64,000 nucleotides of DNA from a virus. The notes under the pieces were generated by a model, which worked only from the letters and a program-made list of their open reading frames with translations, did no database searches and was not told where the DNA came from. The translations under genes were made by a program, and so were the position numbers. Within the stretch, counting starts at the first letter, position 1. Each line of letters starts with the position of its first letter. The DNA lies in the IMG/VR virus record IMGVR_UViG_3300047157_000171; one strand, written 5' to 3'. Below are positions 621-54,948 of this stretch, in pieces.

Positions 621-1412
621 ATGGCTAAATACACATCACACATCAACCAAGACGAGATATCACATTATCTTAAAGAGTTAAGAAAGATTCCTGTTATAAC
701 ACCAGAAAGAGAAAAGGAATTGTCTAAAATCATGTTAAACCCCGATGTAACCCAACGAGAGATTGATAAGGTACATAAAGAATTATTAGAGGGTAACTTA
801 AGATTCGTTATAACAGTAGCTAAAGACTACCAAGGTCAAGGTATTGATTTATCTGACTTGATATCTGAGGGTAATTTAGGTCTTATGAAGGCGATTAAGT
901 CATTTGATTGGAGTAGAGGTTTAAGATTTATATCATACGCAGTATGGTGGGTTAAACAATCAATCTTCCAATGTCTAAATGAAAACTCAAGGACTATTAG
1001 ATTACCTGTTAATGTTGTGCAAGAAGTACAAAAGGCAAAAAAACAAGATAAACGTGTGGAGGATATAAACCCACGTCTTAGTAATTTAGCACATGCAATT
1101 ACCTTCGATGACCATATTAATGAGGAGGGTGATACTATGTTCGATTTATTAGAGGATGCTGATGCGGTGATGCCAGATTCAGCTTTGGACGGTAAAGATA
1201 TAGTTAAAAGACAACTCCTTAATATTATGGATGTCTTAGACGAACGTGAAAATGCTATCGTTAAAGATTACTTCGGAATCACTGGAACCCCAAGAACGTT
1301 AGAGGACATTGGTAATGATTTCGGACTAACAAAAGAAAGGGTTAGACAAATTAAAGAAAAGGCACTACGTAAGTTACGTAATGAGTCAGACGCAATATTT
1401 GACTACTTATAA
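621..1412 (+). CDS. RNA polymerase sigma-70 factor, RpoD/SigA-like (Bacteroidota type, no region 1.1)
   Basis: Region 2 NLRFVITVAKDYQGQG..DLISEGNLGLMKA..FISYAVWWVKQSI; region 4.2 TLEDIGNDFGLTKERVRQIKEKALRKLR. Confidence 0.95.
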   Translation: MAKYTSHINQDEISHYLKELRKIPVITPEREKELSKIMLNPDVTQREIDKVHKELLEGNLRFVITVAKDYQGQGIDLSDLISEGNLGLMKAIKSFDWSRGLRFISYAVWWVKQSIFQCLNENSRTIRLPVNVVQEVQKAKKQDKRVEDINPRLSNLAHAITFDDHINEEGDTMFDLLEDADAVMPDSALDGKDIVKRQLLNIMDVLDERENAIVKDYFGITGTPRTLEDIGNDFGLTKERVRQIKEKALRKLRNESDAIFDYL

Positions 1413-1464: not shown

Positions 1465-2991
1465 ATGAGAATACTTAGAGAACTACAGAAAAGAATATTC
1501 CCAACGTTGATAGCACTTACGGCATTGTCCGTGAGTCTTTCAGCTGCCTTTTATTCGGTAACGGGATTAAGTAAATTATTTGCGGGAGCGTCATTCCAAG
1601 TTATGGTAATGGCGGGTTCATTAGAAGTTGCTAAATTGGTGATAGCTTCGTTGCTATACCAATATTGGGGACAGTTAAATAAGATATTAAGAACCTATCT
1701 GTCAGTTGCTACTGTGATATTGGTGATAATTACATCGGTAGGTATATATGGATTCTTATCTGCGGCGTACCAAGAAACTGCAACGAAAACAGGAATCGTA
1801 GATAAAGAAGTTGAGTTATTAGAACTTAGAAAAAATAGATTTATTGAGAGTAGAGATTACTACTACCAAGAAAAAAAGTCTTTAGATGAGGGGATAAATC
1901 AATTAAGAAAAGGTTTATCTAATAACGTCATTCAATATAAAGATAAAGAAACAGGTCAGATTATAACCACAACATCATCTTCAAACCGAAGAGCATTACA
2001 AGAACAACTTAAGAGTGCTATAGAACAAAGAAGTCAAATCTCTATTAAATTAGAACAGGCGACAGATTCTATAAATTCAATAGAGGTTAAATCATTGACA
2101 GTAGAGACAGAGTCAGATTTGGCTGGTGAATTGGGCCCACTTAAATATTTGAGTGAATTGACGGAAGTGCCGATGAATAAGATTATCAATTACTTATTAT
2201 TGGTTATTATATTTGTGTTTGACCCGTTAGCCATATCCTTAGTGATTGCTGCTAACTTTGCATTTGATAAAATAAGACCTAAAAAGAAAGAGGTTGATGA
2301 CAATACGGAGGTTGGACCACAACCAATGATTTTAAACGAAGAAGTTTTATCACACATAGAAAAAGTATTAGATAAAAAAGTTAGGGATGTCTCAGACCTT
2401 AAAGAACCTGATTCTGAACAAGGGGTAATGGTTGATGAAGAAGAAATCGACGAAGACAATATGTACGATGAAGATTACTACCAATGGGAAAAAGAATCTG
2501 TTGAAGAATTACATTTACAAGACATATCTGAAGATTTCGAAGAAGATATCATAATTGATAAATCCAACCAAGACGAGTTAATCAGAACAATGGCTAGTTT
2601 AGATAGTAGTGAAGTTTTACGTGAAATTAAGAAAGAGATGACGCCAGATAAAGATAATTCATGGGATGTTACATTACAAGACGGTTTAGAGGAAGAAGAG
2701 GAATGGGATGAAGACCATGCCCTTGATTTGGTAATGAACGATATGGTTAAAGATTTCACTGAGGAGGATATTCAAAAAATAATTGATACCAACGAAGAAG
2801 AAATCGAACCTAATGAGGATTTAAAATTGGCAACTGAAAAGTTTAAAGAAATAGTGGTTAATGACCCTGAAGAAGTGGTTGTTGAGGATACATTAAAAGA
2901 AGTGGAACCACCTGTTAGTAAAACTAATGTGTCACCATATTTAAGAGTGGGAAACAGGGTAATACCGAGAAACAAGAGATATGGAAAATAA
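1465..2991 (+). CDS. Multi-pass membrane protein with coiled coil and acidic C-terminal tail
   Basis: About three N-terminal hydrophobic helices, coiled-coil segment, further TM (YLLLVIIFVFDPLAISLVIAA), D/E-rich tail. Confidence 0.7.
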   Translation: MRILRELQKRIFPTLIALTALSVSLSAAFYSVTGLSKLFAGASFQVMVMAGSLEVAKLVIASLLYQYWGQLNKILRTYLSVATVILVIITSVGIYGFLSAAYQETATKTGIVDKEVELLELRKNRFIESRDYYYQEKKSLDEGINQLRKGLSNNVIQYKDKETGQIITTTSSSNRRALQEQLKSAIEQRSQISIKLEQATDSINSIEVKSLTVETESDLAGELGPLKYLSELTEVPMNKIINYLLLVIIFVFDPLAISLVIAANFAFDKIRPKKKEVDDNTEVGPQPMILNEEVLSHIEKVLDKKVRDVSDLKEPDSEQGVMVDEEEIDEDNMYDEDYYQWEKESVEELHLQDISEDFEEDIIIDKSNQDELIRTMASLDSSEVLREIKKEMTPDKDNSWDVTLQDGLEEEEEWDEDHALDLVMNDMVKDFTEEDIQKIIDTNEEEIEPNEDLKLATEKFKEIVVNDPEEVVVEDTLKEVEPPVSKTNVSPYLRVGNRVIPRNKRYGK

Positions 2992-3574
2992 TCAAAAGCC
3001 GTTTCATATTAGAAGAAAACAGAATAAGACTCAAATAATGTTAACTCACACATCACGTGACTTAAAATTTTATTTTATGACTCTTAAGTATAGATACGGT
3101 GGTAAGTTTGAAAGAATACCGTCTTATATTATTAGTAAAGATGGTAAGGTAACCAATTTATTTGAGGCAAAATATAGTTCAAACTACTTTGGGACTAGAA
3201 GAATTGATAACCGAGCGATTATAATTTCATTAGAAAATAACGGTTGGTTAAAAAAACATCACCTATCAGGTAAGTTTATGAACTGGGTTGGTGATATTTA
3301 TTTTAAGAAGCCTTTCGAAAAGAAATGGAGAGGTTTCGGGTTTTGGGATTCTTATACTGATGAACAGTATAAATCATTATCGGACCTAATAATAAAGTTA
3401 AGTGAAGAGTTTGACATACCTTTAGAGTATGTGGGACACAACACTAAGATTACGGGGGTACAAAATTTTAAAGGTATTACCTCAAGGTCGAACTATTCGG
3501 ATATACATACAGATGTATCACCGGCATTTGATTTTAAAAAGTTAAAACAATATATAGATGAAAAACACGATTAA
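2981..3574 (+). CDS. N-acetylmuramoyl-L-alanine amidase-like protein (Amidase_2 fold), possibly degenerate
   Basis: IMLTHT, YIISKDGKV, IIISLEN, YTDEQYKSLSDLI, TDVSPAFDF follow the Amidase_2 motif order; the second Zn-ligand His appears replaced (GITSRSN). Confidence 0.7.
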   Translation: MENNQKPFHIRRKQNKTQIMLTHTSRDLKFYFMTLKYRYGGKFERIPSYIISKDGKVTNLFEAKYSSNYFGTRRIDNRAIIISLENNGWLKKHHLSGKFMNWVGDIYFKKPFEKKWRGFGFWDSYTDEQYKSLSDLIIKLSEEFDIPLEYVGHNTKITGVQNFKGITSRSNYSDIHTDVSPAFDFKKLKQYIDEKHD

Positions 3575-9549: not shown

Positions 9550-10356
9550 ATGAATAATTATTACAAAATTTTAGGATTAAGTAAAGACGCAAGTCAAGAG
9601 GACATTAAAAAGTCTTATCGTAAACTTTCTAAAAAACACCATCCTGACATGGGTGGTGATGACGAAATGTTTAAAAAGATTAATGAAGCTTATAGTGTGT
9701 TGGGTGATGAGAAAAAAAGAAAAGAACATGATAATCCAAGACGTAGTTTTGATGATATATTCTCGTCAGGTTTTGGTTCTGATTTTATGGAAAGTATGTT
9801 CAATCAAGGTAGGTCTCGCAGATATCGAGGTTCCGACATAAAAATTGACTTAACTATCACGGTAAAAGATTCTATGATGGGGGGTGAAAAGGAAGTGTCT
9901 TATTATCGTATGACTAAAGATTTCAGAGAAGAAAGACGTAGTATAAAGATTAATATACCACAGGGTGCAGACGATGGTAATCTTTTCAGAGTTTCAGGTG
10001 GTGGTAATCAAGGGGAGTCCTCACCGGGAGATTTAATTATAATTATTAATATAGGTTCAGATGGTGTGTATTCAAAATCAGGTTTCAACCTTTTTTATAA
10101 CTTAGAGTTGAACCCTTTAGAGATATTAACAGGTAAAGAGGCTACGATTGATTTATACCACAGTAAGATTAAAGTAAATATCCCATCGTGTGTTGATATG
10201 AATAAACAAATGAGGGTTAAGGGTAAAGGATTTAAAACACGAAGAGGTTTTGGTGATTTGTTTATTACATTTAAAGTAAAAACACCAAAAGAATTATCTG
10301 AATATGAATGGAGATTAGTTGAACAACTAAAAAAAGGAGATAATTTTAGAGATTAA
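9550..10356 (+). CDS. dnaJ: DnaJ-class co-chaperone lacking the Zn finger (class B/CbpA-like)
   Basis: NYYKILGLSKDAS..IKKSYRKLSKKHHPDMGG; G/F linker; C-terminal domain GDLIIII..GKGF..GDLFITFKVKTP; no CxxCxGxG. Confidence 0.92.
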   Translation: MNNYYKILGLSKDASQEDIKKSYRKLSKKHHPDMGGDDEMFKKINEAYSVLGDEKKRKEHDNPRRSFDDIFSSGFGSDFMESMFNQGRSRRYRGSDIKIDLTITVKDSMMGGEKEVSYYRMTKDFREERRSIKINIPQGADDGNLFRVSGGGNQGESSPGDLIIIINIGSDGVYSKSGFNLFYNLELNPLEILTGKEATIDLYHSKIKVNIPSCVDMNKQMRVKGKGFKTRRGFGDLFITFKVKTPKELSEYEWRLVEQLKKGDNFRD

Positions 10357-10623: not shown

Positions 10624-11502
10624 ATGTTTAGTTATATAGGTGGAAAAAGTAAGATTGGTAAATGGATTAAAGAATTCATACCTACAGATATGGAGACTTA
10701 TGTGGAACCCTTTAGTGGTGCCTTTTGGGTTTACTATAATTTAGATTTGGCGTTATACCCAAAATTAAAGACAGTAGTTTATAATGATTTTAATAAGGTA
10801 AATGCGAACTTATTTGCTTGTGTAAAGAAATATGAAGAGTTTTACGAGTTTATTAAAGACATTCCTGCTCAAGAGAAGGATAGGTTTGAAAGATACCAAA
10901 AAGGTGCGTTTGAGGACTTTGATTTTGACCCAGACACACCTAACTTTCAAAAAGGTTTGGAGTATATCTATGTTGTGACTCAAGTGTTCAGTGGGATTAG
11001 ACCTGAAACATCTAACTTCATTGATTTAAAGGGTAAATACAATTCTAAATTCAACTCATTTAGAAACAAACTAAATAACCCTAAGTTCTATAAACATTTC
11101 CAAATGATAACGCACGTTAAGAATGAGGATTTTGAAGATATCATTAATGAGTTTGATTCACCAACCACATATTTTTATTTAGACCCACCATATTGGAAAA
11201 CTGAGGATTATTATTCTAACCAAGACTTTGATGTCACGGACCACAAAAGACTTTCAGAAGTTTTAGGTAAGATTGAGGGTAAATATAGTCTATCTTACTA
11301 CGATTTTGAGTTATTGAAAGAATACTACCCAAAAGACACCCATAGATGGACGAGTAAAGATTACGCAAAGGCGGCAGGTGCGGTATCAGGTAAAAAACAG
11401 ACAAAGGCAAGTGAGTTATTGATTATGAATTATAATGATACAACGTGGCAAGATGTAATTTTAGAAAAAGAAAATATTACAGACGATACATTTGGAAAAT
11501 AA
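10624..11502 (+). CDS. DNA adenine methyltransferase, Dam/D12 class
   Basis: YIGGKSK, YVEPFSGA (SAM binding), YLDPPY (catalytic). Confidence 0.93.
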   Translation: MFSYIGGKSKIGKWIKEFIPTDMETYVEPFSGAFWVYYNLDLALYPKLKTVVYNDFNKVNANLFACVKKYEEFYEFIKDIPAQEKDRFERYQKGAFEDFDFDPDTPNFQKGLEYIYVVTQVFSGIRPETSNFIDLKGKYNSKFNSFRNKLNNPKFYKHFQMITHVKNEDFEDIINEFDSPTTYFYLDPPYWKTEDYYSNQDFDVTDHKRLSEVLGKIEGKYSLSYYDFELLKEYYPKDTHRWTSKDYAKAAGAVSGKKQTKASELLIMNYNDTTWQDVILEKENITDDTFGK

Positions 11503-20127: not shown

Positions 20128-20679
20128 TTATTGTCTTATCAGTAGGTCTATAAAGTGTTCTTTAAGGTCCATTCTTTCTTCTTCGGGGTAACTACACCAC
20201 TGCCAAGTAATACTTGCTTTAATCGTATCTATTTCGGTCTGAACTTTCTTACAGTTTTTCTCTAAGGTGTCTAAATCTTTCTTATCAAATTCTTTCTCGA
20301 TATCAATATCTAATTCGTCTGATAACATAACCAACTCCATTAGATTTAAATCTTCATATGCTTTGGCTGCTTTTGAAAATATCTTATTCATCTTTTCGTC
20401 CTTAATAACGTCAGGATGTGTTTTACGTGAGATATTACGGTACAGTTCTTTTGCGATTTTAGAATTGTTCTTAGGTTTAACCTCTTCGTTAAGTTCATCG
20501 ATTAGTTTTTGACCTTCAGCGGATGCCTTATCAATACCATCATGATTAGACTCGTCCATTAGGGTATCTTTAAAGTCCTCCATAAATATTGCAGTATATT
20601 CTTCCTGTTGTGAAGTCACTTCGTCTAATTCTAATTGGAGGTATTTGTATTTAAACACCCATTTTTTTGTTGTATTCAT
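20128..20679 (-). CDS. J-domain-like protein
   Basis: AKELYRNISRKTHPDV..KIFSKAAKAYE (helix II-HPD-helix III) flanked by coiled coils. Confidence 0.75.
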   Translation of the reverse strand: MNTTKKWVFKYKYLQLELDEVTSQQEEYTAIFMEDFKDTLMDESNHDGIDKASAEGQKLIDELNEEVKPKNNSKIAKELYRNISRKTHPDVIKDEKMNKIFSKAAKAYEDLNLMELVMLSDELDIDIEKEFDKKDLDTLEKNCKKVQTEIDTIKASITWQWCSYPEEERMDLKEHFIDLLIRQ

Positions 20680-20680
20680 A

Positions 20681-21658
20681 TTAAAATATAATAAGTTCTT
20701 TAGTTTTGTCTAACTGTTCCCATTGAAATTTATCAGGAGTATCAAAACCGTTAATATAGTAATCTTTATAAATTGGTGTAAAAAAATCTAACTTATCTTT
20801 CATTTGTTTAATTGATAGAGGAAAGACATCCATAACACAACTATAAATATTTTTCATATCGTATTTCTCAGTACCAAATGAATTAATATTAAAACTTAAT
20901 GGTGTGATTGAACTTTGATTAAAGTTAACACTTATTAAACATTCGTCCATCAATGAACTATTAACAATGTTCTTAGACATATACCTCAAATAAAGAGGTA
21001 GTATTCTATTTGGTGATAATGGGTCAGAACCAATGAATTGATTATTGGTGGTTGGTAATTCGTGATAACTATGTAGTGTGTTATTATTAGTATAAAACTC
21101 ACTATGGGTTGTGTATGTGTTTAAGATACTTACAGAAGGTTTCTCTAATTTTGGGTCGTCGAGTCTAACGATATTTAAAACATCTTTCTTAGACACACTC
21201 CTGTCGTTAGTCATAACAGTAATTGATACGACATTACATTCTTTCGTATCGTATGTTAATTGACAAATGTGCGAGTGACTTTTACTTAACCCGTCTACGA
21301 TTTTTTGTGAGATGTGTTTACCAATAGGGTATGAGTTGACTACATTTTTTGTTGAGTAACCATAATAGTTACCATAATGTAGTGTGTCAGAATAAATTGG
21401 CGATTTTTGTTGAAAAAAATTAATCTCGGAGAACGTATTAAATAACTCAAAATTATCTTGGAAAAGGTATGATTTCAAATCAATTAAGTTTGTAGTAGGA
21501 AGATAGATATTACAGTATTTACCAAATATTGAAGTATTTATATTGTAAGGAAACAGATTGTTACACTCAATGAAGTAGTCCACAATAGATTCACTAATAA
21601 TATTAGGAATAGATTGTTTAGTTTTAACCGAATAAGACTTGTAATTTCTGTATCTCAC
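20681..21658 (-). CDS. Degenerate S-adenosylmethionine synthetase (MetK)-like protein, probable pseudo-enzyme
   Basis: Collinear MetK-like motifs YGYSTKN..YPIG, QLTYD..VVSITV, GSDP..NRILPLYLRYMSKNIV..L.DECLI, PLSFNINSFGT, VFPLS..MKDKLD..PIYK, FQWEQLDK; GHPDK, TGRK and GGGAFSGKD absent. Confidence 0.75.
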   Translation of the reverse strand: MRYRNYKSYSVKTKQSIPNIISESIVDYFIECNNLFPYNINTSIFGKYCNIYLPTTNLIDLKSYLFQDNFELFNTFSEINFFQQKSPIYSDTLHYGNYYGYSTKNVVNSYPIGKHISQKIVDGLSKSHSHICQLTYDTKECNVVSITVMTNDRSVSKKDVLNIVRLDDPKLEKPSVSILNTYTTHSEFYTNNNTLHSYHELPTTNNQFIGSDPLSPNRILPLYLRYMSKNIVNSSLMDECLISVNFNQSSITPLSFNINSFGTEKYDMKNIYSCVMDVFPLSIKQMKDKLDFFTPIYKDYYINGFDTPDKFQWEQLDKTKELIIF

Positions 21659-21708
21659 TTTTTTTTTAATAAATGTATATAAATTATACTACATTATAAA
21701 GGAGGTGA

Positions 21709-21716
21709 TATTTATA
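21709..21716 (+). promoter_or_regulatory. Putative late-promoter motif TATTTATA
   Basis: Upstream of the first fibre-cluster gene. Confidence 0.45.
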
Positions 21717-21745
21717 AAAGTATTAAAACAGTAAAAAGATAATAA

Positions 21746-24316
21746 ATGGCTAGGTATAGAAGGCTCACCACAACTACTACTTCAATCATTCAGGGCGTCC
21801 CGTCCACTATCGACACAATACAAGAATTAGCATCATTCGTAAATGAAAATGCTATTATTAATGTTGATGTAAACGGGTTAGACTTAGTAATTGACAGAAA
21901 TAACGGAACACAAGACGTTATTGATTTAACTCCTATTGCTACAGGAGAGGTAAGTGCGGTATCTATAATAAGTGCTGGTTTAAATAACGGTACTTTAACA
22001 CTAACCAAGTCAGACAACACAGAGTTTAGTGTTGATTTAAAACAACTACAATTCATCGTTACCCCTTCATTGGTTGGTAACGATTTAATATTTACAGATT
22101 CTTTAGGTTCTACAATTAGTATTGACCTAACTTCATTCGACCAAACAGTTTCAGTTAATTCGCTTTCTACACGTATTTCTTCAGAAGAAATCAGTAGAAT
22201 CGCGGGGGATAACTCATTATCTGGTTCGATAAATTCACTTTCAACGAGAATAGATAATAGTGGTTCTACGTATGACGATACTGCCGTGTATGGTGAGATA
22301 TCTACGGTAAAAACGTCATTAGATAGTAGAATAAATGGTATTTCTATACCATCAGAATTTGATTCAAGTTCTTTAACCACTAGAGTTTCATCGGTAGAGA
22401 GTACGGTTAACGGAATCTCAATTCCTTCGGAGTTTGATTCGAGTTCGTTAACAACAAGAATATCTTCAGTAGAGAGTACGGTTGATGGGATTTCAATTCC
22501 TTCGGAGTTTGATTCTTCTTCACTAACCAGTAGAATTTCTATTGAGGAGAGTGTTCGTACTGATGGTGATACATCGATTTCACAGTCGATTAATCAAAGG
22601 TTTAGTAATATAAGTGGTTCTATTTACGATGACACGTCATTAACAACAAGGGTATCATCAATAGAGAGTAGCGTTGACGGAATATCAGTACCTACAGATG
22701 TGTCTGATTTAACTGACAATGGAAGTCTTTTAAATGGTACGACATATGATGATACATCGATAGAGAGTAGGGTTAGTCTAACCGAAAGTGTTAATAGTTC
22801 TTTAGATTCAAGAATATCAACTGAAGAGTCTAATAGAATATTATCTGATGTATCACAAAACACATCAATAGACCAAAGATTCACAAACCTTAGTAGTTCT
22901 ACATATAATGATACGTCTTTAGTTACACGAGTATCTTCAGTGGAGAGTACAATCAATGGTATATCAATACCGTCTGAATTCGACCCTTCATCTTTAGAGG
23001 ATAGAGTATCTGTGGAGAAAGTTGGTAGAATTGCTGGTGATAATTCATTAACAATTCGTGTTAGTCAGTTAGAAGTTGCTGACCCATCTATAGACAGTAG
23101 AATATCAACTGAAGAGTCATCTCGTATATCGGGTGATACTTCGATAGACCAAAGATTTAGTAATCTTAGTGGTTCTATATATAATGATACATCATTAGTA
23201 AGTAGGGTATCAACATTAGAGGATACGGTTGGTGGCATATCTATACCATCAGAATTTGATTCGACATCACTTACAACGAGGTTATCGTCAGTAGAGAGTA
23301 CGGTTAATGGTATTTCAATACCATCAGAATTTGATTCAAGTTCAATTGAGACACGTATCACAACAAACGATACTCATATAGCTTCTATTAATAATAGAGT
23401 ATCAACCAAAGAAATTTTAATTAGTGATGTATCAACAGAGTTGGCGTCATTATCTATACCATCAGAATTTAATTCTTCGTCTTTAACAACGAGAATATCT
23501 GCGATGGAGATTGTTCATGATTTAGACGAACAATCAATCAACACAAAAATATCGAGTAATAGTTCAACAATAGCTTCATTAGATAATAAGTTATCGTTAA
23601 CTGAAACTAATTTTAGTTCGGATATATCATCATTAACTAGTTTAATTGGTGGGTTACAAACTGTTGTTAACAGTCAACAATCTACAATAGTCTCATTAGG
23701 GGATAAAATTGAAGAATGTTGTGATGGTCCTGAACCGACTACAACAACTACGACAACAGATAGTTCAACGACTACTACAACAACTGAGTCACCAACGACT
23801 ACTACAACAACTGAGTCACCAACAACTACAACAACAACGACTCAGAGTGGTACGACTACAACGACAACGACATTAAATAGTAGTAACTCTTATCTATTAT
23901 ATGCTGACGCTGGACCTGGTGCAGGACAAGTATTATACAATTCGAGTAACCAACAATTTTATCCGTTCTTAGTACAAAATAGTCCAACAAATTTTAATGA
24001 TTTTGTTACGGACAGACTTAACAATTCAAATAATATTACTATATTTAGTCATGACGTATGTGCAGATAAAAACACCGTCACTTTTAGTTTGAATTTCCCA
24101 GGAAGTACAAACGGAGTACAGGCGTTCTACTTACATCCGTCGTCTCAAGGTACAATAGTTAATATACTTGATACAAATAATAATACTACCTATTCTGTGA
24201 CACCAAGTAGTGGTCAATCGGTAACGATAGGTGGTGCTAACTATACCTTATATAGATGGTTACAACCACAACCAAATGGTTCGACTTTCTCAATAAAGGT
24301 AAATAATTGTTTATAA
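21746..24316 (+). CDS. Fibre-like virion protein with trimeric coiled-coil repeats and Thr-rich linker
   Basis: Repeats SLTTRVSSVESTVNGISIPSEFDS; TTTTTT/ESPTTT linker before a ~145-aa C-terminal domain. Confidence 0.7.
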   Translation: MARYRRLTTTTTSIIQGVPSTIDTIQELASFVNENAIINVDVNGLDLVIDRNNGTQDVIDLTPIATGEVSAVSIISAGLNNGTLTLTKSDNTEFSVDLKQLQFIVTPSLVGNDLIFTDSLGSTISIDLTSFDQTVSVNSLSTRISSEEISRIAGDNSLSGSINSLSTRIDNSGSTYDDTAVYGEISTVKTSLDSRINGISIPSEFDSSSLTTRVSSVESTVNGISIPSEFDSSSLTTRISSVESTVDGISIPSEFDSSSLTSRISIEESVRTDGDTSISQSINQRFSNISGSIYDDTSLTTRVSSIESSVDGISVPTDVSDLTDNGSLLNGTTYDDTSIESRVSLTESVNSSLDSRISTEESNRILSDVSQNTSIDQRFTNLSSSTYNDTSLVTRVSSVESTINGISIPSEFDPSSLEDRVSVEKVGRIAGDNSLTIRVSQLEVADPSIDSRISTEESSRISGDTSIDQRFSNLSGSIYNDTSLVSRVSTLEDTVGGISIPSEFDSTSLTTRLSSVESTVNGISIPSEFDSSSIETRITTNDTHIASINNRVSTKEILISDVSTELASLSIPSEFNSSSLTTRISAMEIVHDLDEQSINTKISSNSSTIASLDNKLSLTETNFSSDISSLTSLIGGLQTVVNSQQSTIVSLGDKIEECCDGPEPTTTTTTTDSSTTTTTTESPTTTTTTESPTTTTTTTQSGTTTTTTTLNSSNSYLLYADAGPGAGQVLYNSSNQQFYPFLVQNSPTNFNDFVTDRLNNSNNITIFSHDVCADKNTVTFSLNFPGSTNGVQAFYLHPSSQGTIVNILDTNNNTTYSVTPSSGQSVTIGGANYTLYRWLQPQPNGSTFSIKVNNCL
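23766..23819 (+). repeat. Perfect 27-nt tandem duplication in the Thr-rich linker
   Basis: caacgactactacaacaactgagtcac x2, encoding TTTTTTESP. Confidence 0.9.
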
Positions 24317-36268: not shown

Positions 36269-39088
36269 ATGGCTAAGAACATAATTATCACACCGAATTT
36301 AACAGGGACAGATAATCCAAACATAGCTATCACCAATGGAAATGAAGAGATTGTCATCGGCTTAAACGCCGGTGGCTCTCTTATCTTCCAAGACGGTGGT
36401 GGAACTACGTTATTGGAACTGGACTCTAATGGTAACGCCACAGTAAAGAACCAAAACCTTAAAACTAATCAGTTTACAGTAAACTCACAAGACGCTTTCG
36501 ACGAGTCCCTTTATGTAGGTCCATCAGGACACTTAAAAGGACAGAAAGGTATCAAAGGAAACATAGGACCCACCGGAGCTCAAGGAGCGAAAGGAGTAAT
36601 TGGGGCAAAAGGTTTGAAAGGATACATTGGTTCCGTAGGGGTGGTAGGTGCCCAAGGTGCTCAGGGTGCTCAAGGACAAGTAGGTGCAACTGCACCAAAA
36701 GGTCCAAAAGGCCCAATAGGAAATGCAGGTCCAACAGGACCCGTAGGACCAAAAGGAGGACAAGGTGCTCAAGGACCTAAAGGTTACGTAGGTAATCAAG
36801 GGAGTAAAGGAGTAACAGGACCTAAAGGTCTAAAAGGAGGAGTAGGTCCACAAGGACCACAAGGTGCTTCACCTCAAGGACCACAAGGACCGCAAGGACC
36901 TCAAGGACCACAAGGACCGCAAGGACCTAAAGGTTATAAAGGGATAAAAGGTGCGACAGGTAATGTCGGACCAACAGGACAGAAAGGTATCGCGGGTACT
37001 AAAGGTAACGAAGGACCTATAGGGGACAGAGGTATCACAGGACTTAAAGGATACAAAGGTATTACAGGACCTAAGGGTCAGACGGGTAATAAAGGACCCA
37101 AAGGTAATGCCGGTGACCAAGGACCTACCGCAGCAAAAGGTGCGTTAGGTAATAAAGGTACTAAAGGTAACAAAGGTGTCATTGGCTCGAAAGGGTATAA
37201 GGGCAATAGAGGACCACAAGGACCAAAAGGTTATGAACCTAAAGGACCTAAAGGATACCAAGGACCTAAAGGGTACAAAGGTATCAAAGGTAACAAAGGT
37301 ATTAAAGGAAACACAGGACCACAAGGACCGAGAGGTATACAAGGTGGCGGCGGTGACTTAGGACCAACAGGTGTTGCAGGTATCAACGGACCAAAAGGAC
37401 CAAGAGGTGTTCAAGGACCTGTCGGTACTCAAGGACCAAAAGGTTATAAAGGGGTCAAAGGTAATAAAGGACCACAAGGTACTAAAGGACCTCAGGGAGA
37501 CCAAGGAGGGCCAGGTGCTAAAGGTGTTATTGGACCTCAAGGTAATAAAGGTATAAAAGGTAACGCAGGACCAAAAGGTTATATTGGTTCTTCTATTAAA
37601 GGTAATAGAGGAGGACAAGGACCAACAGGTTATAAAGGTATCAAAGGTAATAAAGGTGTTAAGGGTATCAAAGGAAACTTTGGACCTCAAGGACCTACAG
37701 GACCTACAGGAAACCAAGGACCGACAGGTGCTAAAGGAACTGCTGGAGCCACAGGAACTAAAGGTAACCGAGGAGGTACTGGCGGACCGGGTGACAAAGG
37801 TGTTACAGGACCGGGAGGACCAACAGGTGGAAAAGGTATCAAAGGTAACATAGGTGGACAAGGACCAAGAGGAGGTCAAGGTGCACAAGGTTATCAAGGA
37901 GCGAGAGGTACTACAGGACTTAAAGGAAATAAAGGTATCAAAGGTTATCAAGGTGATAAAGGTCAAACAGGTGGAAAAGGTATTAAAGGTAATATCGGAC
38001 CAGGTGGACCAACAGGGCCAGGAGGTGACAGAGGACCAAACGGTGATGCAGGTGGAAAAGGTTACAGAGGTGACCAAGGACCTACAGGACAGAAAGGTTA
38101 TAAAGGAGCCCCAGGTGGAAAAGGTATCAAAGGTAACATAGGTGGTCAAGGAGCGAGAGGTCCACAAGGAGGACAAGGTTCTCAAGGAGCACGAGGTACT
38201 ACAGGACCAAAAGGACCTAAAGGTTATAAAGGTAATGCTGGTGCCAAAGGTTATCAAGGTTCTAAAGGTATCAAAGGTAATAAAGGAACTAAGGGTTATA
38301 CGGGTAATCAAGGACCACAAGGTGACAAAGGTTACGTAGGTGACCCAGGAGCTCAAGGACCCGCAGGTGGAAACAGTAGTACCAAAGGTGGTAGAGGACC
38401 ACAAGGTACTTCACCAAAAGGTTATATTGGAGGACAAGGACCACAAGGTAACAAAGGTGTCAGAGGACAACAAGGACCGGGTGGTGACTTATATCTTGTA
38501 TCAACATTCCCAGATGCTCCTGAAGGACCAACAGGACAAAGAGGACCAACAGGACCGAATGGTACATCTAAAGGACCAAAAGGATATGCAGGACCACAAG
38601 GTACTCAAGGACCGAAAGGTGTAAAAGGACCGTCATATTTTGGACCAAAAGGTAAGAGAGGACCTAAAGGTTCAGGAGGACCAAAAGGACCAAAAGGATA
38701 CGGACCATTTGGTCAGGGACCAAAAGGATATAAAGGACCAAAAGGACCTACAGGTAACTCATCTGATATGAGGTTAAAGGAAAACATCAAAGAATTAGTT
38801 GGTGGTATTGAAAAAATATCAAAACTTAGAGGTGTTAAATTTGATTGGATTAAAGAATCTGTTCATAATGTGGATGGAGTTAAAGGTGGAGATGCTGGTT
38901 TTATCGCACAAGAAGTTAACGAGGTTTTACCTGAGTTGACTAATATAATGAATCAAGAGAATGGTACAATGCAAGTCAACTATGCTAAGATGACTTCGGT
39001 ATTAATCTCAGCACTTAGAGAACAGAGGGAAATCGTTAAAGAATATACTGATAAACTTGAAATAATTAAATTAAATCGTTCGAAATAA
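36269..39088 (+). CDS. Collagen-like fibre protein 1 with C-terminal S74 intramolecular chaperone
   Basis: About 740 aa of Gly-X-Y (aa ~91-830), then SSDMRLKENI..LRGVKFDW..AGFIAQEV..LPEL..VNY. Confidence 0.92.
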   Translation: MAKNIIITPNLTGTDNPNIAITNGNEEIVIGLNAGGSLIFQDGGGTTLLELDSNGNATVKNQNLKTNQFTVNSQDAFDESLYVGPSGHLKGQKGIKGNIGPTGAQGAKGVIGAKGLKGYIGSVGVVGAQGAQGAQGQVGATAPKGPKGPIGNAGPTGPVGPKGGQGAQGPKGYVGNQGSKGVTGPKGLKGGVGPQGPQGASPQGPQGPQGPQGPQGPQGPKGYKGIKGATGNVGPTGQKGIAGTKGNEGPIGDRGITGLKGYKGITGPKGQTGNKGPKGNAGDQGPTAAKGALGNKGTKGNKGVIGSKGYKGNRGPQGPKGYEPKGPKGYQGPKGYKGIKGNKGIKGNTGPQGPRGIQGGGGDLGPTGVAGINGPKGPRGVQGPVGTQGPKGYKGVKGNKGPQGTKGPQGDQGGPGAKGVIGPQGNKGIKGNAGPKGYIGSSIKGNRGGQGPTGYKGIKGNKGVKGIKGNFGPQGPTGPTGNQGPTGAKGTAGATGTKGNRGGTGGPGDKGVTGPGGPTGGKGIKGNIGGQGPRGGQGAQGYQGARGTTGLKGNKGIKGYQGDKGQTGGKGIKGNIGPGGPTGPGGDRGPNGDAGGKGYRGDQGPTGQKGYKGAPGGKGIKGNIGGQGARGPQGGQGSQGARGTTGPKGPKGYKGNAGAKGYQGSKGIKGNKGTKGYTGNQGPQGDKGYVGDPGAQGPAGGNSSTKGGRGPQGTSPKGYIGGQGPQGNKGVRGQQGPGGDLYLVSTFPDAPEGPTGQRGPTGPNGTSKGPKGYAGPQGTQGPKGVKGPSYFGPKGKRGPKGSGGPKGPKGYGPFGQGPKGYKGPKGPTGNSSDMRLKENIKELVGGIEKISKLRGVKFDWIKESVHNVDGVKGGDAGFIAQEVNEVLPELTNIMNQENGTMQVNYAKMTSVLISALREQREIVKEYTDKLEIIKLNRSK

Positions 39089-51971: not shown

Positions 51972-52775
51972 ATGGAGTATAAATTAAGTTACCGAGGGTG
52001 GGAGAATATATTCTTAGAGTATTATATAACAACAAATTGCAACTTAAACTGTGCATCGTGTTCTACGTTTTCTCCATTGGTGAAAGGTACGACACATATT
52101 GACTTAGAGGTTATTAAGTCAGAGACGGAAAAGATGTATAGAATTACCAACAATGGTAAAAATATATATCGATTAGTTTTGATGGGAGGGGAACCACTTA
52201 TGCACCCTAACATTAATGAAATCATTACTCATTTTGGTGAGTTAAACGTACCGATTAGGATAGTGACAAATGGTATACTTATTCCAACTAAGAAAGGAGA
52301 GTTTTTCGAATTACTAAAGAAATATAATGTCGAATTTATTATCTCTATATACCCTAAGATAAAGTATGAGAAGATATTTAAAAAATTAGAAGAGTATGGT
52401 TGTGTTTATGGGAAGTTTACATACTTAGGTGACGAGTCATGGGGAAGTCAGTTTCTTCATAGAGAGAAAAAGGGGGTTACGGATTGTAGGTATCGTGGGA
52501 ACGTATATATCCTTAAAGATAATAAGATATTTACTTGTTCTGAAACTGCTTTTTTTGATATCTTTGACGAAACATTCAAAGGAGAACACGATTTAAAAAT
52601 AACCAAAGATGATTATGTTGACTTAGACGATATTGAGACCTTAGAGGAATTAATGGAGGCTAGAAAAACAATCCCACCGTTATGTGAGTATTGTGATGGA
52701 AGTATTAAAAAGGGAGGTAAATGGACGATGTCCAATAATAGTATAGATGAATGGTTAACACCTAAAAAAAAATAG
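51972..52775 (+). CDS. Radical SAM protein
   Basis: CNLNCASC, MGGEPLMHP, IVTNG; C-terminal Cys residues (C..C..CEYC) suggest a Twitch/SPASM-like extension. Confidence 0.9.
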   Translation: MEYKLSYRGWENIFLEYYITTNCNLNCASCSTFSPLVKGTTHIDLEVIKSETEKMYRITNNGKNIYRLVLMGGEPLMHPNINEIITHFGELNVPIRIVTNGILIPTKKGEFFELLKKYNVEFIISIYPKIKYEKIFKKLEEYGCVYGKFTYLGDESWGSQFLHREKKGVTDCRYRGNVYILKDNKIFTCSETAFFDIFDETFKGEHDLKITKDDYVDLDDIETLEELMEARKTIPPLCEYCDGSIKKGGKWTMSNNSIDEWLTPKKK

Positions 52776-53681: not shown

Positions 53682-53909
53682 ATGGAAAAAGGATTTTGGG
53701 CAGGATTACTGTCGTTTGTATTGGCTAAAGTAGCCCACTTAATTATTACAGGAACTATTGGTTTCATAATTGGTATGAGTTATGCTCAGACACCTGAAGA
53801 TATGCCATGGGGGTTTATTAGAGTTATTGATAATCCAATTACAGGGATTATATTCTTAATTTTTGCTACTAAATTCATATATGGTAAATTGACAACTAAG
53901 AATGGGTAA
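53682..53909 (+). CDS. Small membrane protein
   Basis: Two hydrophobic segments. Confidence 0.6.
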   Translation: MEKGFWAGLLSFVLAKVAHLIITGTIGFIIGMSYAQTPEDMPWGFIRVIDNPITGIIFLIFATKFIYGKLTTKNG

Positions 53910-54948
53910 TATAGATAAGCAATATCAAAGGTTACTATCTGACATCATTGAAAATGGTGTTGATAAGAAAGACCGTACAGGTACTGGTACTATTTCGGTG
54001 TTTGGTCGTCAGATAAGACACAACATGAGTGAAGGATTTCCTTTACTAACCACAAAGAAGATGGCAGTTAAAACTATGATGACTGAATTGAAGTGGTTTC
54101 TAAAAGGAGATACTAATATTAAATACTTAGTTGATAACAATTGTCATATTTGGGATGGTGATGCTTATAAAGCATTTAAGAGTACATTTTCGCCAATGCC
54201 CGGCATTCAATCATCTTTACCTAGTCAAGATGAATTTATCAACAAAATCAAAACCAATAATGAGTTTGCTCAGAAGTGGGGAGAGTTAGGACCTATATAT
54301 GGTAATCAATGGAGAGAGTGGGGTTCTAAGTATGAAACTAATTATATATTAGGTACACGAAAAAGAGTTAAGCCAGGCATCGACCAAATTGTAAAACTTA
54401 TTGATAATCTAAAGAACAATCCTGATAGTAGAAGATTGATGGTATCAGCATGGAATGTTGATGAAATTGATAATGTAGTTCTTCCTCCGTGTCATTATGG
54501 GTTCCAAGTTTATACTGAAGAACTTAGTTTTGATGAGAGAGTTAAATATTGGGTTAGTTCTATAGGTAAGAGTCTATCTTACGCAAAACGTATGACCGAT
54601 ATTGATTTAGACGAACGAGGTGTTCCTAAAAGAAAATTATCTTTAATGTGGAATCAAAGAAGTTGTGATACTTTCTTAGGTATTCCATTTAACATATCCT
54701 CATACGGTACTTTATTAGTCTTAATAGCTAAAGAAGTGAATATGGTTCATGGTGAACTAATTGGTAACTTAGGTGATGTACATTTATATAAGAATCACAT
54801 CCAACAAGCAAAAGAGCAGATTTTGAGAGAACCGTATAATTTACCAACAATTGAGTTTAGTAATGTAGATTTATTAGGTGGTGAATGGGATTATAAACTT
54901 AATGATTATGAATATCATCCAACTATAAAAGCACCTTTAAGTAATTAA
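53902..54948 (+). CDS. thyA: Thymidylate synthase (with insertions)
   Basis: DRTGTGT, FPLLTTKK, ELKWFLKG, LGPIYG.QWR, SRR..SAWN, LPPCH, QRSCD.FLGIPFNISSY, GDVHLYKNH. Confidence 0.97.
   Translation: MGNIDKQYQRLLSDIIENGVDKKDRTGTGTISVFGRQIRHNMSEGFPLLTTKKMAVKTMMTELKWFLKGDTNIKYLVDNNCHIWDGDAYKAFKSTFSPMPGIQSSLPSQDEFINKIKTNNEFAQKWGELGPIYGNQWREWGSKYETNYILGTRKRVKPGIDQIVKLIDNLKNNPDSRRLMVSAWNVDEIDNVVLPPCHYGFQVYTEELSFDERVKYWVSSIGKSLSYAKRMTDIDLDERGVPKRKLSLMWNQRSCDTFLGIPFNISSYGTLLVLIAKEVNMVHGELIGNLGDVHLYKNHIQQAKEQILREPYNLPTIEFSNVDLLGGEWDYKLNDYEYHPTIKAPLSN

Follow-up and report, generated by a model that had tools for sequence, protein, structure and literature searches.

The viral DNA considered here is a single stretch of 64,000 nucleotides (IMG/VR virus record IMGVR_UViG_3300047157_000171; hereafter the window), and the gene in question lies on its minus strand at positions 20681-21658, with a GTG start codon (ATG at the same codon in the relatives) and a TAA stop at 20681-20683. 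It encodes a protein of 325 amino acids that descends from the S-adenosylmethionine (SAM) synthetase MetK. The profile comparisons and structural models described below indicate that the three-domain MetK fold is kept over the whole length, and the catalytic residues have been replaced. We infer that the protein is a MetK-derived pseudoenzyme acting by binding, not by catalysis. Within a single lineage of uncultured large phages from the sea, selection maintains its gene, a genuine accessory gene, which is followed directly by a gene for a small J-domain protein.

A clear sequence match to MetK is limited to the last third of the protein (about residues 205-322). Residues 208-315 (20714-21037, minus strand) are the part that still matches the C-terminal domain of MetK (PF02773, S-AdoMet_synt_C), with 67.6 bits against a gathering cut-off of 25 (E-value = 1.4e-18), and the same domain is matched in all 14 members of the family described below. 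The N-terminal and central domains (PF00438 and PF02772) gave no match in the window protein; PF02772 was matched weakly (E-value = 0.0028) by two of the 14 family members. The match to the metK equivalog model TIGR01034 (E-value = 4.6e-21) covers model positions 259-373 only. Residues 207-320 align with residues 261-374 of E. coli MetK, and a search of the PDB recovered MetK entries at an E-value of 1.5e-12 for the protein by itself and of 2.4e-18 for the family profile.

When the family profile was compared with a profile of nine canonical MetKs by hhalign, the two were collinear over residues 16-320 and 18-368, respectively (probability 99.85%, E-value = 1.5e-30). This whole-length score is dominated by the C-terminal third, and residues 1-200 were therefore tested separately. 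On their own they matched the small MetK profile at an E-value of 2.6e-4 and a 41-sequence profile at 3.8e-5, in the expected register, against 0.33 for a reversed control; residues 1-100 alone gave no significant match to the MetK profiles in the right register. Because the sequence signal of residues 1-200 is weak and that of residues 1-100 is not significant, the homology of the N-terminal part rests on structure. A first AlphaFold model was built from the 14 family members only; its alignment contained no MetK, and templates were not used. Although the model as a whole was poor (predicted local distance difference test score (pLDDT) of 56.7, and below 50 in the C-terminal third), most of residues 1-85 and 110-180 were modelled with confidence. 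After the low-confidence parts had been trimmed, an all-against-all structural search with residues 1-195 placed the MetK structure 4le5_B on top (Z-score 9.5, 175 aligned residues, root-mean-square deviation 5.7, chain residues 1-258), with two further SAM synthetases in second and third place. Foldseek aligned the first model with MetK over its full length (E-value = 8.5e-9); a structural search of BFVD gave no match. A second model, based on an alignment that included canonical MetKs, reached a pLDDT of 87.1 and a predicted template-modelling score of 0.86. It matched many MetK structures over the full length with template-modelling (TM) scores of 0.79-0.86 and an E-value of 1e-22, and a MetK cluster of the ESM Atlas with a TM score of 0.88; being biased towards MetK by its alignment, it serves as confirmation only. 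A first-pass annotation, made from the sequence alone, had proposed that the open reading frame follows MetK from end to end. The whole-length hhalign result, the family-only model and the second model all bear this out, the profile and Foldseek checks against MetK return MetK, and every MetK motif pair quoted in that annotation is present in the translation.

The loss of the catalytic residues was read from hhalign and MAFFT alignments (ligands are numbered as in E. coli MetK). The GHPDK motif (His14, Asp16 and Lys17) is replaced by K-T-K-Q-S at residues 12-16, the K+ ligand Glu42 by Asn41, Glu55 by Pro54, and Lys165 by Ile131. In the GxTGRK motif, which holds Arg244 and Lys245, the protein reads T190-N191-N192-N193, and the GGG loop has become T/S-N-N. 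SGKDPSKVDR, with Lys265, Lys269 and Asp271, has become GSDPLSPNR, so that the whole GGGAFSGKDPxKVDRS region now reads T-N-N-Q-F-I-G-S-D-P-L-S-P-N-R and keeps only Gly, Asp, Pro and Arg. The Asp of GAGDQG (Asp118) corresponds in the hhalign alignment to His94, at a position that varies within the family, and the gating loop has lost about 11 residues; MAFFT pairs this Asp with the invariant D91, three residues off register, and a substitute Asp is still possible. Canonical MetKs have 44 positions with a conservation of 88% or more; the protein shows the same residue at only 18 of them, chiefly Gly, Pro, Trp and residues of helices. Against TIGR01034 (EC 2.5.1.6) the window protein scores 75.2 bits, far under the cut-off of 309.4, whereas a canonical MetK (P0021) scores 485.5. 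With these motifs replaced and the equivalog score so low, SAM synthetase activity of the 325-amino-acid protein is very unlikely. The disappearance of GHPDK, GLTGRK and GGGAFSGK had been noted in the first-pass annotation; to these may be added GAGDQG, Glu42, Glu55 and Lys165.

The old pocket itself gives little indication of a new use. The residues aligned with Glu55, Gln98, Phe230 and Asp238, the methionine and adenine contacts of the E. coli structure, are not retained, nor are any of the basic residues. A sponge or sensor for SAM or SAM-AMP that works through the old pocket was set aside on these grounds, and the earlier suggestion of a SAM sensor is weakened. The replaced ex-catalytic columns are conserved at 0.68 in the family, against 0.70 elsewhere (permutation p = 0.74), and so there is no sign of a new catalytic pocket at the old site. 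Conservation is lowest in the middle third of the protein, where part of the pocket lies (0.585 versus about 0.76).

Thirteen full-length relatives, of 318-327 amino acids and 41-98% identity, were found in metagenomes, and all of the loci come from seawater or other marine metagenomes. The family alignment contains 68 invariant columns, and the invariant polar residues include N19, E23, D27, N41, D91, K114, N191, E200, D212, R218, R225 and K229. In the three pairs with an unsaturated synonymous rate (dS), the Nei-Gojobori ratio of nonsynonymous to synonymous rates (dN/dS) was 0.029, 0.048 and 0.081, and in no pair did any third of the gene for which it could be calculated exceed about 0.10. 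The choice between purifying selection and decay, raised when the gene was first annotated, thus falls to strong purifying selection, given dN/dS values of 0.03-0.08, an undisturbed frame and a constant length. The family is also narrow. An exhaustive profile search of 1.84 billion representatives recovered only two 50%-identity clusters of the family, after which the E-value leaps from 1e-135 to 2e-21, where the ordinary MetKs begin. No full-length relative was found in 50,697 phage records, in which only the C-terminal domains of canonical MetKs were matched, and neither a scan of IMG/VR nor 185,579 species genomes yielded a relative; nor did any longer or fused form of the MetK-like protein turn up. 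In a quick maximum-likelihood tree, a fast search to which long-branch warnings apply, all family members fall into a single clade (support 100), whose stem measures 3.39 changes per site. A long stem followed by tight constraint is the pattern expected for a change of function.

The J-domain gene (183 amino acids; 20128-20679, minus strand) starts 1 nucleotide after the stop codon of the MetK-like gene; a head-to-tail J-domain neighbour had been recognized from the outset. Its J domain (PF00226) was detected in the window protein with an E-value of 1.8e-5 and 25.2 bits, just below the cut-off of 27.8, and in six of six tested orthologues (best E-value = 2.6e-6). Searched against the PDB, the family profile of the J protein found the J domain of CbpA (residues 66-111, E-value = 1.8e-5), and nearly all of the other matches were J domains. 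The HPD tripeptide (residues 88-90; 20410-20418, minus strand) is invariant in all aligned orthologues, as is the block KELYRNISRKTHPD. At about residues 66-112, the J domain occupies the interior of the protein, between two conserved regions to which no function could be assigned. From these features the protein is predicted to be a small co-chaperone of Hsp70. It is conserved at 64-90%, more than the MetK-like protein, and has the same narrow distribution. The order of the pair is the same in the window and in L001/L002/L003, L004, L006, L012, L014, L016 and L017, and the J gene follows the MetK-like stop codon by 0-2 nucleotides in the window, L002, L004, L006, L012, L014, L016 and L017; in L001 and L003 the J start set by the gene caller lies 46 nucleotides downstream. 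The gene order predicts that the two genes are co-transcribed, and they are probably also translationally coupled. A prediction of the complex between the MetK-like protein and the J protein, run without controls, scored 0.15, where the mark is 0.32, and speaks neither for nor against their binding. In RNA libraries, contigs span the J gene and the two ends of the MetK-like gene, whose middle (about 20808-21275) has almost no cover; as contigs, they carry no information on transcription, its strand or its level.

The exception is L015, a 158-kb TARA contig, in which the J gene occupies the same place and 357 nucleotides of non-coding DNA (about 2645-3000) replace the MetK-like gene; tblastn found no trace of the latter at this locus. 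Because L015 is nested among pair-bearing loci in the tree of J proteins (support 0.93), secondary loss of the MetK-like gene, that is, a natural knockout, is the simplest reading of the sequences. At least one lineage can therefore do without the MetK-like gene, and the J protein must be more than a folding helper reserved for its product. The first-pass annotation had suggested that the J-domain gene could help the MetK-like protein to fold; with L015 keeping the J gene after the loss of its neighbour, that suggestion loses force.

The divergent intergenic region of 87 nucleotides upstream of the MetK-like gene (21659-21745) contains conserved AT-rich blocks. CTTTATwATG and TTTATwAAAAA stand before the MetK-like gene, and TATTTATA lies on the other strand, in front of the divergent fibre gene that starts at 21746. 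The blocks are conserved between six aligned loci in which dS of the coding regions has reached saturation, and the proximal block shares its TTTATwA core with the TATTTATA motif of the neighbouring fibre gene.

The best single mechanism for the protein, which we put forward tentatively from sequence, models and analogy, is that of a poison or decoy subunit of the host MetK. The MetK-like protein would capture host MetK subunits through the flat beta-sheet face by which MetK subunits pair, and the hybrid dimer would be dead at both active sites, because MetK active sites are built from both partners. Host SAM synthesis would in this way be lowered or re-routed at a chosen time in infection. 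The first-pass annotation had already offered a dominant-negative or decoy subunit that controls the host SAM pool against host defence, and as a hypothesis this is reasonable. The J partner may recruit DnaK and so aid the assembly or exchange of a hard-to-fold MetK-type subunit, and would also have a role of its own. In its fullest form, the proposal is a two-gene module in which a dedicated J protein recruits DnaK (the host's or the phage's own) and has the dead MetK mimic inserted into stable host MetK oligomers, a chaperone-assisted poisoning of subunits that would time the control of SAM while the phage methylase works; taken as a whole, this extended scheme is improbable.

Several observations weigh against the poison subunit. 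The identity of the window protein to any MetK is only about 19%. The positions of human Glu57 and Arg264, which form a conserved inter-subunit salt bridge, are occupied by Asn41 (invariant) and Asn192 (in 11 of 13 members), and this pair is compatible with a homodimer of the MetK-like protein itself. As to timing, no TTTG occurs within 21659-21745, so there is neither a -33 nor a -7 box of the host type found in Bacteroidota, and the upstream blocks hint at transcription by a phage sigma factor, that is, not immediate-early; the window encodes a phage sigma-70-type factor with regions 1.2, 2 and 4 (621-1412, plus strand). Lastly, the phage has SAM users of its own, namely a Dam-type, D12-class N6-adenine DNA methyltransferase (10624-11502, plus strand) and a radical-SAM protein (51972-52775, plus strand), which argue against outright depletion of SAM.

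The main alternative, doubtful but possible, is that the protein serves phage assembly as a homo-oligomeric scaffold or adaptor, together with the J protein and Hsp70, for example in building the very large collagen-like and repeat fibres encoded beside it, and has no link to host MetK or SAM. The tight coupling and co-distribution of the MetK-like gene and the J gene would suit such a role, as would the position of the MetK-like gene directly beside fibre-like genes, with the TTTATwA core shared upstream. The phage also invests in proteostasis, with a complete DnaJ encoded at 9550-10356 (plus strand; J domain E-value = 1.4e-22, DnaJ_C E-value = 1.3e-31), and genes for DnaK and DnaJ are known from large aquatic phages that infect Flavobacteriia (PMC12619734). 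A second lineage of eroded MetK, P0029, is itself coupled to a genuine ClpP gene. However, the genes around the MetK-like gene and its J partner all lie on the other strand, L015 has lost the MetK-like gene but kept the J and fibre genes, and nothing connects the MetK fold to roles in assembly.

That the protein binds a new small molecule, or catalyses a different reaction, in a reshaped cavity with many Asn, Ser and Tyr residues is unlikely. The 68 invariant columns with their many polar residues, and the long stem with the tight conservation that follows it, would be accounted for in this way. Nevertheless, the phosphate, metal and methionine ligands are all lost and the gating loop is shortened, the replaced columns of the former active site do not exceed the average conservation, and the third of the protein that bears part of the pocket is the one that varies most. 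A decaying, functionless remnant of an auxiliary metabolic MetK gene of the phage would explain the lost motifs and the missing gene in L015, but a pseudogene in decay is rejected on the dN/dS values, and the intact frame, the near-constant length across 41-98% identity and the invariant columns make it hardly credible. An unusual but active SAM synthetase has the MetK fold in its favour and is just as hard to credit, with the positions of His14, Asp16, Lys17, Glu42, Asp118, Lys165, Arg244, Lys245, Lys265, Lys269 and Asp271 all replaced and the score at about a quarter of the equivalog cut-off. The rest of the probability, beyond the poison subunit and these four alternatives, is left to something else.

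Type I restriction, BREX, the SAM-AMP signalling of type III CRISPR systems and the methylases of the phage itself all depend on SAM. Since it serves defence systems and phage methylases alike, control of MetK is a real lever in infection. To our knowledge, only one way in which a phage blocks MetK has been described, that of the T3 SAM lyase. If the poison-subunit mechanism is true, a dead MetK copy kept by selection would be a second and mechanistically different block, exerted through a mimic subunit. Whichever mechanism applies, the protein is a clear-cut natural case of a phage pseudoenzyme: its partner gene is defined, and one of its relatives provides a natural knockout. MetK, MetK genes borne by phages and phage J-domain proteins are already known; what is new is a phage pseudoenzyme made from MetK with a defined partner. 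In the literature we found no description of a conserved, catalytically dead phage MetK, nor of its pairing with a J-domain protein.

The window is AT-rich phage DNA with a GC content of about 0.30-0.38, and nearly all of its genes lie on the plus strand, interrupted by the minus-strand cassette of the MetK-like gene and the J gene. On one flank of the cassette are two genes of 270 and 177 amino acids without assigned function and then a glutaredoxin-like gene (CPYC), followed further on by genes for a thioredoxin (WCGPC), a non-specific nuclease, a DUF932 protein and a PLOD-type glycosyltransferase/oxygenase. Long, repeat-rich fibre-like genes make up the other flank. The first of these (21746-24316, plus strand) shows a 27-nucleotide deletion and 3-nucleotide insertions at 23766-23792 among contigs of different seawater runs, which represent length variation in a Thr-rich tract. 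A further gene (36269-39088, plus strand) encodes a collagen triple-helix repeat protein (PF01391, E-value = 7e-76) that ends in an S74 intramolecular chaperone, and it is one of three similar collagen-repeat/S74 genes in a stretch of higher GC content (0.42-0.44). With the DnaJ, for which no close cellular relative was found, two J-domain proteins are encoded within 11 kb of phage DNA. A thymidylate synthase of 348 amino acids (53902-54948, plus strand) matches its 266-position profile from end to end and carries about 80 extra residues as insertions.

Erosion of MetK was also seen elsewhere. P0029 is a second, separate case, a protein of 338 amino acids in which GHPDK reads SHPIM, and the ClpP gene (PF00574, E-value = 3e-57) follows it at 3 nucleotides; the pair lies at L005:3297-4982, L018:7001-8686 and L019:3191-4876. 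Two partly eroded MetK-like proteins, P0087 (377 amino acids, L021:1766-2899) and P0067 (356 amino acids, L022:5001-6071), lie on a contig of orphan genes and in a cellular metagenome-assembled genome beside genes of sugar metabolism, respectively. The loss of catalysis in MetK may thus be recurrent across lineages. If the chaperone-assisted scheme holds, eroded MetKs beside proteostasis genes could reflect a general strategy, in which a mimic is combined with a chaperone or a protease against one host protein. Among the canonical MetKs checked in their context, the nearest to the family profile is P0017 (L020:6001-7068), which has 355 amino acids and all motifs intact; its surroundings are cellular and of the reduced-genome type (Era, RecO, MurC and LepA). 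This protein is short and yet cellular, and short MetKs are therefore not specific to phages.

Compared with bacterial MetK (E. coli; PDB 1fug and 7ll3), the window protein has the same three-domain fold with a recognizable C-terminal third, and it keeps the structural residues G100, P111, G210, D212, P213, R218, R225, K229, W313 and E314. It differs in being about 55 residues shorter, in the replacement of the catalytic, metal and triphosphate residues, in the shortened gating loop, in a score below the equivalog cut-off and in the position of its family on a very long branch outside the canonical MetKs. The MetKs of phages (for example Staphylococcus phage UPMK_1, Erysipelothrix phage phi1605 and Faecalibacterium phage FP_Brigit) share 26-35% identity with it in the C-terminal third, and phrog_1569, the phage S-adenosylmethionine synthetase, is matched at an E-value of 2e-9. 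These phage records match the family through the C-terminal domain only and are annotated as enzymes. The J partner may be likened, by domain layout, to Rki of the T4-like phage RB43, a small J-domain protein with HPD and no client-binding domains of DnaJ (PMC3486835). Both are small phage J proteins with HPD, but the J domain of the J protein in the window is internal and flanked by two conserved regions.

Dead homologues that are kept by selection and pair with an active enzyme are known from the S-adenosylmethionine decarboxylase (AdoMetDC) prozyme of trypanosomatids, which activates a partner from its own genome; in the phage case the host enzyme would be the partner, and inhibition the likely effect. 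The SAM lyase of phage T3 is not known to be related in fold to MetK. As described (PDB 7ock and 8bb1; bioRxiv 10.1101/2023.02.27.530186), this SAM-cleaving enzyme binds and inhibits the host MetK, and the possible shared outcome is a host MetK blocked by binding, which in the present case would be the work of a mimic subunit. The direct precedent for a poison subunit comes from human and rat methionine adenosyltransferase (MAT). Its subunits pair through beta-sheets with the active sites at the dimer interface, the contact between Arg264 and Glu57 is the main polar contact of the human dimer, and a heterodimer of the rat R265H mutant with the wild type makes no SAM (PMC7271947). In MAT1A R264H and rat R265H, a dead subunit poisons its wild-type partner. 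That subunit is a point mutant of the same gene, whereas the window protein comes from a different genome, as a homologue with about 19% identity.

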